Below are positions 8 through 60,798 of a stretch of 64,000 nucleotides of DNA, one piece after another. Origin of the DNA: an uncultured Collinsella sp. GTDB taxonomy: Bacteria; Actinomycetota; Coriobacteriia; Coriobacteriales; Coriobacteriaceae. How positions within the stretch are numbered: the first letter of the stretch is position 1; each line of letters opens with the position of its first letter. The stretch spans positions 38,672 through 102,671 of the forward strand of contig CATYVH010000004.1 of the NCBI GenBank assembly GCA_958413765.1. The letters are read 5' to 3'. Made by a program: the position numbers and the translations under genes. Below the pieces are notes generated by a model. It did not search any database. It saw only the letters and a list, made by a program, of their open reading frames with translations, and was not told where the DNA came from.

Positions 8-96
8 AAGTGCCGCAGATTGCCGTGAAAGAGGAGCGAGGCGTACTTTGGTACGCGAGCGACGGTTTGAACGGCAAGGTGCGGTGCCTGGGAAAG
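8..96. repeat. Conserved structured intergenic element, copy A (3-stem motif; second copy at 59540-59631)
   Basis: About 85% identity to 59540-59631. The hairpin GCGTAC-TTTG-GTACGC is conserved. Outer stems show compensatory changes (CCGCA/TGCGG here vs CCGGA/TCCGG in copy B; TTGCCGT/ACGGCAA vs TTGCCCC/GGGGCAA). On the minus strand it begins 5 nt after the guaB stop. Confidence 0.6.
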
Positions 97-100
97 CCGC

Positions 101-1612
101 TTATCGATAAGATACGGACTGCTGGGAGTCCTTAACCACAACGTCGTGGGCGCCGCCTTCGACGATGGAGGTGGAGCTGACCAGGGTCAGGCGTGCCTTT
201 TCCTGGAGCTCGGGGATCGAGAGGGCGCCGCAGTTGCACATCGTGGACTTGACCTTGTAGAGCGTGCCGCCCACGCCGTCCTTGAGGGAACCGGCATAGG
301 GAACGTAGGAGTCAACGCCCTCGACGAAGCTGAGCTTCGCCGCGCCGCCCAGGTCGTAGCGCTGCCAGTTGCGAGCACGCGCAGAACCCTCGCCCCAGTA
401 CTCCTTCATGTACTGGCCGTTGACGTTGACGCGCTCGGTCGGGCTCTCATCGAAGCGGGCGAAGTAGCGACCCAGCATCATAAAGTCGGCACCCATAGCA
501 AGGGCGAGCGTCATGTGGTAGTCGTATACGATACCGCCGTCGGAGCACACGGGCACGTAAACACCGGTCTCCTCGTAGTACTCGTCACGGGCGCGGCAGA
601 CGTCGATCAGCGCGGTGGCCTGGCCACGACCGATACCCTTGGTCTCGCGAGTGATGCAGATGGAACCGCCGCCGATACCGACCTTGATGAAGTCGGCACC
701 GCAGTCGGCCAAGAAGCGGAAGCCCTCGGCGTCGACGACGTTACCGGCACCGACCTTGACGTCCTCGCCGTAGTTGGCGCGAATCCACTCGATGGTGCGC
801 TTCTGCCACTCACTGAAGCCCTCGGAGGAGTCGATGCACAGGACATCGGCGCCAGCCTCGATGAGCAGCGGCACGCGCTCGGCATAGTCGCGGGTGTTGA
901 TACCGGCGCCGACCATATAGCGCTTGTCGTTATCGAGCAGCTCGTTGGGGTTGGTCTTGTGGCTGTCGTAGTCCTTGCGGAAGACGATGCCCATAAGGTG
1001 ATCGTTGTCGTCGACGATAGGCAGAGCGTTGAGCTTGTTGTCCCAGATGACGTCGTTGGCAACCTTGAGGCTGATGTTCTTGTCGCCCACGATAAGCTGC
1101 TCACGCGGGGTCATGAACTCGGAGACCTTCTTCTGGTGGTCATCGCGGCTGGGGCGATAGTCACGGCTGGTGACGATGCCCAGGAGCTTGCCCTTGGGAG
1201 TGCCATCGTCGGTGACCGGCATGGTGGAGTGGCCGGTCTTCTCCTTGAGCTCGATGACCTGCTCCATGGTCATGTCGGGGGTCAGCGTGGAATCGGACTG
1301 AACGAAACCAGCCTTGTGATCCTTAACGGCCTTAACCATAGCAGCCTCGGACTCAGGGGTCTGAGAACCGTAAATGAAGGACAGGCCACCCTCGGTAGCG
1401 AGCGCGACACCCATGTCGACGCCCGAGACGGACTGCATGATGGCGGAAACCATGGGGATGTTCAGGGTGATTGCCGGCTTCTCACCGCGCTTAAAGCGGG
1501 TTAGCGGCGTCTTAAGAGAGACGTTGTTGGGGATGCACTGCGAGGACGAGTAGCCAGGGACCAGCAGATACTCCGAAAACGTGTGGGACTCACCGGGAAA
1601 GAACGTAGCCAT
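101..1612 (-). CDS. guaB: IMP dehydrogenase
   Basis: 503 aa. N-terminus [23 protein letters not shown]. Internal CBS pair. [12 protein letters not shown] catalytic loop. Full-length IMPDH architecture. Confidence 0.9.
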
Positions 1613-3402: not shown

Positions 3403-3516
3403 GATGCGGGTGTTCCCCGCATCGTGGGCAACGGCTGCAGTATAGCGCCGATAGGCGACGAAACGCCTAGATGCTGAGCGTGTGATAGGTCACGCTCGCA
3501 CCCGGAGCGTCAACGG

Positions 3517-13802: not shown

Positions 13803-13825
13803 ACCAACCGTCAACGTTTCAAATG

Positions 13826-13862
13826 CAAAAAATCGGTCCCTCGAGACTCCTCGAGGGACCGA
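13826..13862. terminator. Bidirectional rho-independent terminator (terminates the rfbCD transcript on the minus strand)
   Basis: Perfect hairpin TCGGTCCCTCGAG-ACT-CCTCGAGGGACCGA. Minus-strand reading is followed by TTTTTTGCATTTG. Confidence 0.75.
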
Positions 13863-13866
13863 TTCA

Positions 13867-15324
13867 TTACACGAGCGTCTTGAGGTACTCCCCCAGCTCT
13901 TCCTCCCAGTCGGGCATGTGGAAGCCGACCGACTCGAGCCTGGACAGGTCGAGCGCGGAGTGGACCGGGCGCGGGGCGACGGGGCCGGCGGCATTCGCGT
14001 AGTAGTCGGAGGTGCTGACCGGCACGACCCTGTCGCCGTTGCCGTTGGCGTCCTCGAAGACGGCGCGGGCGACGTCGGCCCAGCTCTTGACGGCGCCGGA
14101 ACCCGTGCAGTCGTAGGTGCCGTAGGGGGCGTGCGTCCCCAGCACGTGGAAGATGGCCTGCGCCATGTCGCGGGTGAAGGTCAGGCGGCCCAGCTGGTCA
14201 TCCACGACGGTGACCTTGTCCAGCTTGTCCTCGGGGTCGGCGACGCGGTCGGAGAGCGCCTTCATGGTCTTCACGAAGTTGTGCCCCTCGCCGATGACCC
14301 AGGAGCTGCGCATGATGTAGTGGCGCGGGCACCCGGCCACGGCGATGTCGCCGGCGGCCTTGGTCTGGCCGTAGACGGACAGCGGGCTGAGGGGCTCGTC
14401 CTCGGTATGGACCTCGGCGGTGCCGTCGAAGACGTAGTCGCTGGACACGTGGACCAGCGTGATGCCGTGCCCGGCGCAGGCGCGGGCGAGAAGCGCCGGG
14501 CCGGTGGCGTTGGCCTTCCATGCAATCACGCGGCCCTCGGGGGTCTCCGCTCTGTCCACGGCGGTGTAGGCGCCGCAGTTGATGACGGTGCCGTAGAGCG
14601 ACCAGTCGTACTGCGCGTAGGCCTCCGGGTCGGACATGTCGAAGGTGTCGATGTCGCAGAAGTCGAAGTCCTTGGCGACGCCGCGCTCCTCGGCCAGCGC
14701 GCGCACAGCATGGCCCAGCTGGCCGTTGCAGCCGGTGACGAGCGTGCGCTTGGGCGCCATCGGGACGACGTCCTTCAACATCGGGTGGTTTTTGTCCGCC
14801 TCGGAGACGGTGGCCCGGTCCAGCGGGATCGGCCACTCGATGGCGAGCTCGGGGTCGGCGAGGTTCACGAAGGTGTAGGTCCTCTTCAGCTCGAGGGACC
14901 AGTGGGCGTCCACCAGGTAGGTGTAGGCGGTGCCGTCCTCCAGCGCCTGGAAGGAGTTGCCCACGCCGCGCGGGACGTAGATGGCCTTGGAGGGGTCCAG
15001 CACGGTCGTGTAGACCTTGCCGAAGGTGGCGCTGCCCTCGCGCAGGTCCACCCAGGCGCCGAAGACCGAGCCGCGGGCCACGGAGATGAACTTGTCCCAG
15101 GGCTCGGCGTGGATGCCGCGTGTGACGCCGCGGCTGTCGTTGTAGGAGATGTTGTTCTGGACGACGCGGAGGTCGGGGATCCCGAGTTCGGTCATCTTGG
15201 CGCGCTGCCAGTTCTCCTTGAACCAGCCGCGCGAGTCGCCGTGGACGGCCAGGTCGACGACCTTGAGGCCCTCGATGCCGGTCTCGGCGACCTTCAGGTC
15301 CTTCTCGAATGCGATGTCAGCCAT
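13867..15324 (-). CDS. rfbCD: Bifunctional dTDP-4-dehydrorhamnose 3,5-epimerase / dTDP-4-dehydrorhamnose reductase (RfbC-RfbD fusion)
   Basis: N-terminal half is RmlC-like (GDSRGWFKENW..., cupin). C-terminal half is RmlD-like (TLVTGCNGQLG..., VHVSSDYVFDG, YGQTK). Confidence 0.9.
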   Translation of the reverse strand: MADIAFEKDLKVAETGIEGLKVVDLAVHGDSRGWFKENWQRAKMTELGIPDLRVVQNNISYNDSRGVTRGIHAEPWDKFISVARGSVFGAWVDLREGSATFGKVYTTVLDPSKAIYVPRGVGNSFQALEDGTAYTYLVDAHWSLELKRTYTFVNLADPELAIEWPIPLDRATVSEADKNHPMLKDVVPMAPKRTLVTGCNGQLGHAVRALAEERGVAKDFDFCDIDTFDMSDPEAYAQYDWSLYGTVINCGAYTAVDRAETPEGRVIAWKANATGPALLARACAGHGITLVHVSSDYVFDGTAEVHTEDEPLSPLSVYGQTKAAGDIAVAGCPRHYIMRSSWVIGEGHNFVKTMKALSDRVADPEDKLDKVTVVDDQLGRLTFTRDMAQAIFHVLGTHAPYGTYDCTGSGAVKSWADVARAVFEDANGNGDRVVPVSTSDYYANAAGPVAPRPVHSALDLSRLESVGFHMPDWEEELGEYLKTLV

Positions 15325-29923: not shown

Positions 29924-30141
29924 CATCTCAATCTGTAACAGGTGGAGGCGAAATCCGGGTCTAGATGTTACAGATCGAGACACAGGGGTCCCTCCCCGAC
30001 TTCAATCTCGATCTGTAACATCTTGGGCCCCAAAACCCCTCTTACTGTTACAAATCAAGACATTCAAAATCCGCCGAAAGGTTTGTCTCGATCTGTAACA
30101 TCTGGAACCCAAATCCTCGTCTAATTGTTACAGATGGAGAC
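29924..30141. repeat. Array of six copies of a 15-16-bp motif (TCTCGATCTGTAACA) at exact 40-bp spacing in strictly alternating orientation
   Basis: Copies at 29926, 29966 (inverted), 30006, 30046 (inverted), 30085 and 30126 (inverted). Spacers of 24-25 bp are partly related to one another (80-bp higher-order unit). About 170 bp upstream of the glpA-like gene. Confidence 0.8.
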
Positions 30142-30310
30142 GAACGGTTGCCTTAGTTGTCGACAGACGAGGTTGTCGACGTTACTGAGTCTCCCCTCTC
30201 CTGCCGTTGGCGGGTGTTGCGGGGCTGTTCGCCGCATTGCCGCCGCACTGGGGGTGTGCAGACCGTAGGATAGTCTTATTGACAGCCTGTCAACTTATCT
30301 GGGAGGCACT

Positions 30311-34946: not shown

Positions 34947-35009
34947 AAGCGAGTCAACTCGGGGCGCAGGGCAGCCAAAAAAGCCCCGTCCCAAATTGAC
35001 TGCTTTTGA

Positions 35010-35074
35010 GTTGCGGTGATATACGGACTGTTTGAGGCTTCTGGCTTGTAAAACAGTCCGTATTTCACCGCAAC
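35010..35074. repeat. Near-perfect 24-bp inverted repeat (long hairpin) between pepP and folC
   Basis: gttgcggtgatatacggactgttt ... aaacagtccgtatttcaccgcaac with a 17-nt loop. No downstream U-tract on either strand. Confidence 0.7.
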
Positions 35075-35089
35075 TGCTGAGGGGATGGG

Positions 35090-39629: not shown

Positions 39630-39673
39630 CGTATATATAAAACAGCCTCCGACCGCGGGTGGTCGGAGGCTGT
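39630..39673 (-). terminator. Rho-independent terminator of clpX
   Basis: Minus-strand reading: CAGCCTCCGACC-ACCCGC-GGTCGGAGGCTG followed by TTTTATATATA. Confidence 0.75.
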
Positions 39674-39696
39674 TTACAAGCACGTTTTAGGCAGGT

Positions 39697-43280: not shown

Positions 43281-43364
43281 TGGTGCGGGCGAAAGGACTC
43301 GAACCTTCACGGGAATCCCACCAGAACCTAAATCTGGCGCGTCTACCAATTCCGCCACGCCCGC
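43281..43364 (-). tRNA. tRNA-Leu (anticodon UAG), type II with long variable arm
   Basis: Minus strand: GCGGGCGTGGCGGAATTGGTAGACGCGCCAGATTTAGGTTCTGGTGGGATTCCCGTGAAGGTTCGAGTCCTTTCGCCCGCACCA. Anticodon loop TT-TAG-GT. CCA is encoded. Confidence 0.85.
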
Positions 43365-49023: not shown

Positions 49024-49120
49024 TGGCGGGAACGTATGTGAATCGAACACATCCAAGACGTTTTGCACGCCTCACAACGGTTTTGAGGACCGCGGGGCCC
49101 ACCGGAGCCCATCCGCTCCC
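49024..49120 (-). tRNA. selC: tRNA-Sec (selC), anticodon UCA
   Basis: Minus strand: GGGAGCGGATGGGCTCCGGTGGGCCCCGCGGTCCTCAAAACCGTTGTGAGGCGTGCAAAACGTCTTGGATGTGTTCGATTCACATACGTTCCCGCCA. 97 nt. Extended acceptor stem. Anticodon loop CC-TCA-AA. Long variable arm. Directly downstream of selB. Confidence 0.8.
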
Positions 49121-53823: not shown

Positions 53824-53897
53824 TGGAGCGGGCGACGGGAATCGAACCCGCGTCATCAGCTTGGAAGGCTGGGGTTCTACCATTGAACTACGCCCGC
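53824..53897 (-). tRNA. tRNA-Gly (anticodon UCC)
   Basis: Minus strand: GCGGGCGTAGTTCAATGGTAGAACCCCAGCCTTCCAAGCTGATGACGCGGGTTCGATTCCCGTCGCCCGCTCCA. 74 nt. Confidence 0.85.
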
Positions 53898-53903
53898 AAG
53901 ATA

Positions 53904-53980
53904 TGGTCGGGACGACAGGATTTGAACCTGCGACATCCTGCTCCCAAAGCAGGCGCGCTACCAAACTGCGCCACGTCCCG
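53904..53980 (-). tRNA. tRNA-Pro (anticodon UGG)
   Basis: Minus strand: CGGGACGTGGCGCAGTTTGGTAGCGCGCCTGCTTTGGGAGCAGGATGTCGCAGGTTCAAATCCTGTCGTCCCGACCA. 77 nt. Confidence 0.85.
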
Positions 53981-59477: not shown

Positions 59478-59539
59478 GGCTCTCTCCTAATCCAAACATC
59501 AAAGACAGCGGCGCGTTCAGGCGCCTTAGCTCTAGGTTT

Positions 59540-59631
59540 CTCAGGTGCCGGAGGTTGCCCCGAAAGAGGAGCGCGGCGTACTTTGGTACGCAAGCGACGG
59601 TTTGAGGGGCAAGATCCGGTGCCTGAGGAAG
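59540..59631. repeat. Conserved structured intergenic element, copy B
   Basis: Homolog of 8-96 with compensatory base changes in two stems. On the minus strand it starts 1 nt after the stop of the HgdB-like gene. It is followed by hairpin GGCGC-CTGAAC-GCGCC plus a U-rich tract and the hgdC-like RBS. Confidence 0.6.
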
Positions 59632-60798
59632 CTAGAGGGTTTCGATGAAGGCGGCGATGCGGGTCTCGATCTGGCCCATGTCACCGTTGCTGTAGTCGGT
59701 CTCAATCTTCATATACGGAATACCCGCGCCCTCGACAGCCTCCTGCATGCGCGCACTCTCCACGTTAAAGGTGTGGCAGGCCTGTAGCACGCTCTCTACC
59801 ACGCCATCGACATGATACTTCTCGCACATGGCCAGCGTGTTTTCCATACGACCATCGTTGGGCGTCATGACCGAGCAGTTGATGTCCAGGTAGCGGTCGG
59901 CGATGGCACGCAGGATGTCGGGAGCCTCCGGGTCGATCATCATGGCCGCCGTGCGCTCGCCCGAGCAGTCGTCCATGCACACGACCACACCGCCGTTGGA
60001 CTCGATGGTGCGACCGATCTTGTTGATCACGCCGCCCACCGGGCAGCCGGTGATCAGAATGCGCTTGGCATCCACCGCAACCGGGCGCTCGCCCGCGTCG
60101 TAGGCCTCGCGCAGCTTGGCAACCTTTTGCTCCAGCTGCTGCGTATAGGCCTCGATATCAAAGCTGAACGTACCGGCAAACATGGTGCTCATCAGGTCGA
60201 CGCCGCTCATGGCCGCCGGTTGGTTGGCCTGCAGCGCAAACATCTCGAGCTGGGCCGCACGCAAGCGGTTGCGACGACGGACGGCAGCGCGCAGGTCATC
60301 GTCGGTAATCGTAATGCCGTAGAAGCCCTCGAGCTCCTCCTTGAGCAGGCGACACTCCTCGTACCAGCCTTCACGCTCGTAAGCGCGATCGCGACCCTGC
60401 GGAAGATGCAGAATGTGCGTGCGCTTGAGCTCGTTGAGTAGCTCGTACATCTTCTTCTTGCCGTCGCAGGTGGTCTCACCGATGATCATGTCGCTAAAGT
60501 ACGTAAACGGACACTTTTGCGAATAGGCAAAACCATACGTAGACTTGATGAGCGGGCACAGGTTTGCCGGCAACACCTTCTCGGCCTCGGGAATCACCTC
60601 GTCGGACGTACCACACAGAGCCACGCTCGCAGCCCCCGCGGCATCGATAATCTCGAGCGGCGTGTAGCTGCACAGAAAACCGATCAGGCGATTACCGGCC
60701 TGCTTGTAATCCTTAACGCGAATAAACGCGGCCTTGCGCTGCTCGTTGAACTCCTCAAACGTGCTGGGCAACTTGACCTCTTCGATTGCTTCAGCCAT
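59632..60798 (-). CDS. 2-hydroxyacyl-CoA dehydratase family / double-cubane cluster protein (HgdB/D-component-like)
   Basis: 388 aa. Cys ligand pattern ([31 protein letters not shown]) typical of the HgdAB/DCCP family. Partnered with the downstream activase. Confidence 0.8.

Follow-up and report, generated by a model that had tools for sequence, protein, structure and literature searches.

Two copies of one structured element are carried on the plus strand of the DNA analysed here, a stretch of 64,000 nt from a contig of an uncultured Collinsella sp. (CATYVH010000004.1; hereafter the window), and each of them meets the stop codon of a minus-strand gene, which raises the question of whether the element regulates the genes beside it or is of some other nature. 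A preliminary description, made from the sequence alone, had taken it for a cis-regulatory leader or attenuator. The comparisons given below point, with a confidence a little above even, to a strand-specific, insertional and dispersed structured hairpin repeat, REP- or TRIT-like, which is recognised via its apical core by a trans-acting factor.

The two copies occupy 1-99 (copy A) and 59530-59637 (copy B) and are 86% identical; the extents described earlier, 8-96 and 59540-59631, were rightly located and too short. Three compensatory pairs distinguish the copies around an apical hairpin, GCGUAC-UUUG-GUACGC, that is the same in both, the paired changes being CCGCA/TGCGG against CCGGA/TCCGG and TTGCCGT/ACGGCAA against TTGCCCC/GGGGCAA. 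The presence of two structured copies with real compensatory differences was thus confirmed by alignment, fold and covariance model, and the invariance of the central hairpin by the alignment. A 40-nt core pattern matches the window at 31-70 and 59566-59605 only (shuffled sequences are expected to give 0 matches), and a covariance model run with its filters off over the whole 64 kb returned copy A (110.6 bits, E 4e-27) and copy B (135.4 bits, E 1e-33) and nothing else. The outermost 5' arm of copy A is lost at the window start; orthologous loci, such as the full-length one at L003:7726-7846, add three pairs, formed by a CGG with the CCG at 97-99. Within copy A, the 5' arm of the basal stem P1 (1-17), which has the GUGCC of a tandem U.G/G.U block, pairs with 80-97 of the 3' arm (80-99), and stem P2 joins UUGCCGU (20-26) to ACGGCAA (71-77). 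The invariant apical module (31-63), which holds the core common to the Solirubrobacterales family described below, consists of GAGGAGCG-A-G, the hairpin (41-46/51-56, loop 47-50) and then G-AGCGAC. Copy B is complete, with a P1 5' arm (59530-59552) made of the outer CUCUAG (59530-59535) and of 59537-59552, a 3' arm (59615-59637) that supplies the partners 59615-59630 and 59632-59637, a P2 of UUGCCCC (59555-59561) with GGGGCAA (59606-59612), and an apical module at 59566-59598 (hairpin 59576-59581/59586-59591, loop 59582-59585).

The resident copies of the element are about 105-120 nt long and share one anatomy: a long basal stem P1, the sequence of which is free to vary while its pairing is kept, a stem P2 of 6-7 bp and an invariant apical hairpin of 6 bp, GCGUAC-N4-GUACGC. 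Between P2 and the hairpin, the strands 5'-GGAGCG and 5'-AGCGAC can form, as judged from their sequence, a non-canonical inner helix with tandem G.A pairs, a reading favoured by the adjoining pair, which covaries from G-C to C-G. Among 13 Collinsella sequences, 95.9% of the cells are paired, as compared to 30-43% in slid controls, and both partners have changed in 15 of the pairs, which bears out the selection on folding that had been proposed. In the Solirubrobacterales-type set (33 sequences from 26 independent loci), 91.7% of the cells pair as compared to 75.5% after shuffling and 23-41% in slid controls, and 21 of the 33 pairs change on both sides, namely 14 of 14 in P1, 5 of 6 in P2 and one pair of the inner helix. 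Even the apical hairpin covaries, as evident from GCGUGC/GCACGC at L051:3439 and L095:5836 and from GUGUGC/GCACAU at L076. The further genomic copies, some of them collected with a covariance model as the preliminary description had proposed, covary like those of the window. The core common to Collinsella and Solirubrobacterales is GAGCG-N-G[GCGUAC-N4-GUACGC]-N-AGCGA; the loci were picked by exact identity to 27 nt of the core, so that the core, though not the stems, looks more conserved than it is. The Actinomycetota thereby gain a well-supported structured element family with more than 20 covarying pairs.

This family is absent from Rfam 15, and no description of it was found in the literature searched. 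At the gathering threshold, Rfam 15 gave three tRNAs and one selenocysteine tRNA in the window and no family at the element, with E up to 10 it gave no meaningful match at copy B, and in ten related loci it gave none. The Collinsella-1 RNA motif (RF01700), likewise a candidate structured RNA, known from Collinsella and from metagenomes of the human gut, does not match the element. Among the supplementary files of a survey of RNAs in the human microbiome (PMC8040213), 200 of 408 were searched and gave no exact match.

The distribution of the family was followed with the pattern AGCGNGGCGTACNNNNGTACGCNAGCG in one genome per species (GTDB), for which about 0.3 chance matches are estimated from the size of the collection. 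The scan returned 108 loci, 70 of them in Collinsella and 38 elsewhere. Most of the 70 are orthologous either to copy A, which follows guaB and precedes leuS, or to copy B, which lies between hgdB and hgdC. At least seven further Collinsella loci carry the element among unrelated neighbours, lying either way round and, in one case, repeated in tandem. The additional Collinsella copies found by the pattern lie at ROK kinase/nanE, at FGGY kinase/luxS and past the gene of a type I restriction R subunit; the covariance model adds a copy that separates hgdB from another hgd-like gene (at least 35 genomes), an inverted second copy beyond the ROK gene, three or more units in tandem after hsdR and a copA/copZ copy in C. 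aerofaciens. In a 0.9-Mb C. aerofaciens record, five places were located by blastn and the model found one copy in 140 kb, from which about 10-15 copies per genome are estimated. The preliminary description had reckoned with a dispersed repeat lacking structural conservation as the outcome contrary to its own; the element is indeed a dispersed repeat, and its structural conservation is strong.

The 38 other loci belong to Solirubrobacterales, Conexibacteraceae, one Pseudonocardiaceae bin and unclassified Actinomycetota, and have the core in common, with differing surrounding loops and stems. A model built from the Solirubrobacterales copies alone ranks the window copies first and at full length (E 1e-5 and 1.2e-4), and the Collinsella model in turn detects the Solirubrobacterales copies. 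Since human-gut Collinsella and soil Thermoleophilia are joined by one invariant core, a conserved recognising factor is implied. Metagenomes yielded 11 more Solirubrobacterales-type loci that follow the same context rules, viral contigs gave no match, and the single match in a plasmid collection was the 0.9-Mb C. aerofaciens record. This record (NZ_OY725717.1, loci L109-L111), which is entered in PLSDB as 'plasmid 6' of C. aerofaciens TSDC17.2-1.1 with 899,693 bp, is chromosomal DNA and not a plasmid, because recA, ftsK, rpsB, tsf, pnp and other core genes are aboard. A 2.1-kb contig labelled Akkermansia muciniphila (L076, CAVCDT010000187.1) has a type I restriction R gene with three or more Collinsella-type units in tandem behind it, and its label is probably a binning error. 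Partial copies, comprising the 3' half or the apical module alone, occur near full ones at L021:7405-7435, L050:5797-5835, L083:6178-6230 and L108:4928-4980, which suggests local duplication or interruption by other DNA.

In all loci examined, the element lies nearly always at the 3' end of a gene. In about 12 independent Solirubrobacterales loci, the stop of a minus-strand gene falls within the last 3-4 nt of P1 (...GUCAG or ...CUCUAG), and the terminal CUGA/CUAG...UCAG/CUAG pairs often serve as the stop of the gene entering the element. The stop-fused genes that were verified are mostly highly expressed housekeeping genes, i.e. fusA (with tuf downstream), nrdJ, ftsZ, a yebC-like and an iscA/erpA-like gene; fusion of a stop to the opposite end of the element is rarer (about 3 cases versus 16). 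Both window copies obey this common rule, being antisense to the upstream gene and having its stop at or inside the hairpin base. The base of copy A at position 99 is 1 nt away from the guaB (IMP dehydrogenase) stop TAA (101-103, minus strand; open reading frame 101-1612), and the outer stem of copy B, CUCUAG/CUAGAG, encloses in its 3' strand the TAG (59632-59634, minus strand; open reading frame 59632-60798) of an hgdB-like gene of the 2-hydroxyglutaryl-CoA dehydratase D-component family. The adjacency to stop codons described earlier hence stands for both copies, with a distance of 1 nt in place of 5 nt for copy A and with the stop enclosed in copy B. The gene identities assigned before (guaB, HgdB-like and hgdC-like) were upheld by Pfam, which recognised IMP dehydrogenase (IMPDH, E 2.4e-109), the HGD-D family (E 4.5e-111) and a BcrAD/BadFG-type activator ATPase.

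Seen from this context, a cis-regulatory leader or attenuator acting on hgdC and after guaB becomes very improbable. It could draw on the position of copy B between hgdB and hgdC, where, as had been described, a terminator-like hairpin and the ribosome-binding site of the hgdC-like gene come after the copy on the minus strand. However, a riboswitch or cis-regulatory leader needs a sense position in the 5' untranslated region before a coherent gene set, and the copies follow gene ends, lie in both orientations and have their well-folding strand antisense to the genes. Their neighbours are unrelated: those in Collinsella (leuS/guaB, hgd genes, ROK kinase/nanE, FGGY kinase/luxS, hsdR, copA/copZ) have no common theme, and those of the related family are fusA/tuf, ribosomal-protein genes, ftsZ and nrdJ. 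The wrong strand, the wrong side of the gene and the unrelated neighbours thus argue against a leader, an attenuator or a riboswitch alike.

An intrinsic (Rho-independent) terminator was rejected as well, on account of the missing U-tract and the copies inside operons. No T-run follows P1 on either strand of the window copies or in the 26 Solirubrobacterales loci, and copies are found within rplW/rplB, rplB/rpsS, fusA/tuf, copA/copZ and hgd operons; the location within essential operons also indicates that the reverse-complement orientation is not an efficient terminator. Among other candidates, a selenocysteine insertion sequence (SECIS) was dropped because TAA and TAG stops are also found, and an internal promoter (TTGCC-N18-TACTTT) because it is missing from the Solirubrobacterales family; a small open reading frame starting from the TTG in the loop and a mimic of the sarcin-ricin loop were considered and dropped. 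Outside the repeat, just past copy B in the direction of transcription and before the hgdC-like gene, lies a small GC hairpin (59525-59510) with a U-rich tail (59500-59525, minus strand), which is likely an intrinsic terminator or attenuator ahead of that gene. A comparable small GC hairpin with a U-rich tail is seen at L003:7694-7708 (minus strand), past copy A in the direction of guaB transcription. It is plausible that the small U-tailed hairpins beyond both window copies are true terminators or attenuators.

The strand on which the element folds was deduced from folding energies and from the kinds of mismatch that the stems tolerate. The plus strand folds at −49.4 kcal/mol (z −5.1) in copy A and −71.9 kcal/mol (z −8.4) in copy B, as compared to −34.9 and −52.1 kcal/mol for the minus strand, an advantage of 14-20 kcal/mol in the window. 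The weaker folding of the minus strand is partly explained by the GGUGCC/GGUGCC tandem U.G/G.U block, which is possible on the plus strand only. In a census of the non-Watson-Crick cells of P1 and P2, taken from one representative for each of the 26 independent clusters, G.U (27) and G.A (22) mismatches far exceed A.C (7) and C.U (3), the classes that become G.U and G.A on the opposite strand. Mutation that is symmetric between the strands would give equal mismatch classes. The equality of G.G and C.C (7 each) argues against a simple composition effect, and the excess of G.U and G.A therefore marks the plus strand, with its purine-rich loops, as the strand selected to fold. The same equality argues against selection for a C-rich mRNA strand, such as a Rho loading site, and this candidate was rejected. 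The favoured strand is antisense to guaB and to hgdB/hgdC. Sigma-70 scans upstream of the Collinsella copies on the plus strand found no promoter-like sequence, and a TANNNT box was present upstream on this strand in 0 of the 26 Solirubrobacterales loci. The orientation of the element relative to GC skew, taken as a mark of replication direction, gave a mean of +0.011 (p 0.08, 16 of 24 loci positive), and the skew in the window is −0.009.

The origin of the copies is revealed by two loci, L051 and L095, which are syntenic across the str and S10 operons. At rplW/rplB, L051 is filled and L095 has a 12-nt spacer; at rplB/rpsS, L095 is filled and L051 has an overlapping ATGA stop/start. Of these two S10-operon sites, each is thus occupied in one locus and empty in the other, which shows that the element has spread by insertion. 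The rplW gene has the same length in both loci. It ends in TAG where the element is missing, and where the element is present it ends in the TGA that the hairpin base provides; furthermore, the P1 of the L051 rplW/rplB copy is nearly that of the fusA/tuf copy 3.6 kb away in the same genome. The shared P1 and the rplW stop supplied by the hairpin indicate that the copied unit is the entire hairpin including its termini. Insertion at rplB/rpsS of L095 is accompanied by a flanking direct duplication of about 50 nt that remakes the rpsS start, and that at L048 by a 24-nt duplication of the last seven codons and the stop; both duplications leave the gene intact. Flanking direct repeats rise above background in these 2 of 33 loci only. 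In L095 (reverse complement, 1999-2210), a frame of 55 codons runs from the duplicated rpsS start through the element on the mRNA strand to the ATGA at the real start, and, as this frame ends on the real rpsS start, translational coupling is kept. The 12 extra bases at this site contain a new GAGGUG ribosome-binding site.

The most variable part of the element is its termini (P1) and the most conserved is its apex; tandem, partial and decaying copies exist. With regard to miniature inverted-repeat transposable elements, the filled/empty site polymorphism expected of them is found at L051 and L095, and conserved termini and a target duplication of fixed length are absent. An IS200 tnpA of the same C. 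aerofaciens genome was rejected as a partner, as it adjoins no element locus and its ends are unrelated. The Collinsella loci at which genomes differ (the copy upstream of hgdB and an extra L064 copy) are not clean empty sites, because the neighbouring genes differ too. The window has at 3404-3450 a classic terminator hairpin, CCCACGATGCGGG...CCCGCATCGTGGG, with an A-run before it, and L064 has at the matching position different DNA and an extra, interrupted repeat copy (L064:4454-4570), which marks the boundary of a variable region.

Once resident, the copies are kept by selection. Across 45 Collinsella genomes, the identity is 99.4% for copy B as compared to 93-94% for the flanking hgdC/hgdB coding DNA, and 99.3% for copy A versus 97-99% for its flanks; the conservation of either window copy is put at about ten times that of its flanking coding DNA. 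Over nine genomes, the fusA/tuf copy keeps an identity of 92%, and next to it coding DNA reaches 80% and intergenic DNA 64%. In the copy upstream of hgdB, the apical hairpin is decaying in several genomes.

Taken together, these observations are best accommodated by the dispersed hairpin repeat named at the outset. A new copy comes about when the complete hairpin is inserted, either way round, at the 3' end of a gene, and the resident copies are afterwards held by strong purifying selection; the single-stranded plus-strand form, as RNA or DNA, would be bound at its apical module by a trans-acting factor that copies or maintains the element. The guaB and hgdB/hgdC mRNAs contain the weaker reverse-complement hairpin from the stop codon onwards and then the separate small U-tailed terminator hairpin. 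In these mRNAs, the transcribed reverse complement would most likely be a tolerated structural spacer, at a 3' end or between cistrons, and not a regulator. Several findings weigh against this explanation. The strand that folds better runs antisense to the genes around it and lacks a promoter, and orientation relative to GC skew does not account for a single-stranded form either, so that its route to a single-stranded or transcribed state is left unexplained. No regular target duplication (31 of 33 loci are at background) and no conserved terminal inverted repeats are seen, and about 1 Mb of loci contained no transposase, reverse transcriptase or other partner candidate near any copy. Near-identical copies at different loci are not seen either, bar one local duplication, and current mobility is therefore unproven. 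Strong purifying selection on single copies would not be expected if the element were purely selfish, and it indicates a function for the host. Finally, the link between Collinsella and Solirubrobacterales is partly built in, as the second family was fetched with a pattern of the Collinsella core.

A host function is central to the explanation that comes next in weight, though unlikely in itself, namely an RNA signal selected by the host at gene ends, serving factor-dependent termination, processing or mRNA stabilisation through a protein on the palindromic apical helix, with dispersal as a secondary matter. The copies at gene 3' ends, often on the stop codon as in the TRIT hairpins (PMC3152330), and the conservation of single copies agree with such a signal, as do the apical stem GCGUAC/GUACGC, which is identical on both RNA strands, and the small U-tailed hairpin that follows both window copies on the mRNA strand. 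However, P1 is not followed by the U-tract without which mycobacterial RNA polymerase shows no intrinsic termination (PMC3993855), reverse-complement copies sit within essential operons (rplW/rplB, rplB/rpsS, fusA/tuf) and sense copies within operons too (copA/copZ, nanK/nanE), and the mismatch bias favours the strand that is absent from most local mRNAs. This bias would be better served by small trans-acting or cis-antisense RNA genes transcribed from the plus strand, for which the folding, the G.U and G.A pairs, the purine-rich internal loops, the strong covariation and the invariant core all speak. Since the promoter scans were empty in both families, independent genes of this sort are nevertheless quite improbable, the more so as no terminator tail is present, several copies are squeezed within a few nt of both neighbouring genes, and tandem arrays, partial copies and one decaying copy occur.

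A site acting at the DNA level downstream of highly expressed genes, either as a cruciform or by binding a dimeric protein, gyrase or a nucleoid protein on the 16-bp palindrome GCGTAC-N4-GTACGC, would be in keeping with the invariant palindromic core, the often highly expressed neighbours and the occurrence in either orientation relative to genes. It is considered improbable, because binding to duplex DNA needs no 20 or more covarying flanking pairs, a cruciform would give no G.U/G.A bias towards one strand, and the conserved flanks of the palindrome are asymmetric. A bolder and rather unlikely extension of the repeat explanation is a new kind of self-propagating, strand-specific structured nucleic acid of Actinomycetota, the purine-rich single strand of which is recognised by an enzyme via the apical module. 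Such an element might pass through an RNA that is copied back to DNA, much like a bacterial short interspersed element (SINE), or move as a single-stranded DNA hairpin; insertion might proceed with its UCAG/CUAG end annealed to stop-codon sequences, and a host function might be taken on later. If true, this would account for the folding bias, the delivery of stop codons, the variable-length duplications and the copies in essential operons.

Comparison with known systems places the hairpin repeat proposed here closest to TRIT, the closest described analogue, the resemblance being one of function only. TRIT was reported from Mycobacterium only, as a hairpin conserved in sequence and structure, with 147 copies per genome placed narrowly on stop codons, a suspected binding factor and largely bidirectional action (Gardner et al. 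2011; PMC3152330). Both are multi-copy conserved hairpins of high-GC actinobacteria that overlap stop codons and need no canonical U-tract; unlike TRIT, the present element has fewer copies, greater length, a variable basal stem with an invariant apex and a folding bias towards one strand. REP/BIME and REPIN sequences are similar in being intergenic hairpins past genes or between cistrons, in their tandem clusters, both orientations and orthologous persistence, and near stop codons they can affect mRNA ends and translation. REPs, however, are short and highly repeated, with conserved stems, a GTAG head and a RAYT transposase as partner, whereas the present element has variable arms, a conserved apex, a low copy number (about 5 places per 0.9 Mb) and no RAYT-like gene near its copies. 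The ERIC/IRU, Correia and RUP elements are also imperfect palindromes of about 100-150 nt in transcribed intergenic DNA, found in either orientation and varying in presence among relatives; their conserved terminal inverted repeats, short fixed target duplications and derivation from insertion sequences have no counterpart here. Integron attC sites likewise keep their structure while the stems vary, fold strand-specifically as single-stranded DNA and are placed right after a stop codon. With conserved boxes at the hairpin base, a variable apex, a place in cassette arrays beside an integrase and a fixed orientation to the cassette gene, attC nonetheless has the reverse layout to the present element, which occurs in housekeeping-gene contexts.

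The element would be the second sequence-conserved stop-codon hairpin, independent of TRIT, in high-GC bacteria, the gene ends of which are still poorly understood. A puzzle arises as well, since copies are present in the most highly expressed operons and folding is selected on the strand that those operons leave untranscribed. In annotation, such hairpins are not to be labelled riboswitches, attenuators or terminators.

A few other features of the window were recorded. Scores of about 15-17 bits were given by the element models on both strands at 13817-13879, 35003-35081 and 39631-39685, which are generic bidirectional stem-loops and not members of the family. A different palindromic repeat, TCTCGATCTGTAACA-N25-TGTTACAGATCGAGA, forms three tandem units with 80-nt spacing at 29926-30153, and a similar one is found in Collinsella at L102:4680-4820. 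The selenocysteine tRNA (64 bits) and the three ordinary tRNAs are encoded on the minus strand at 49028-49120, 43284-43364 and 53827-53980, and the presence of the former suggests that the organism probably makes selenoproteins.

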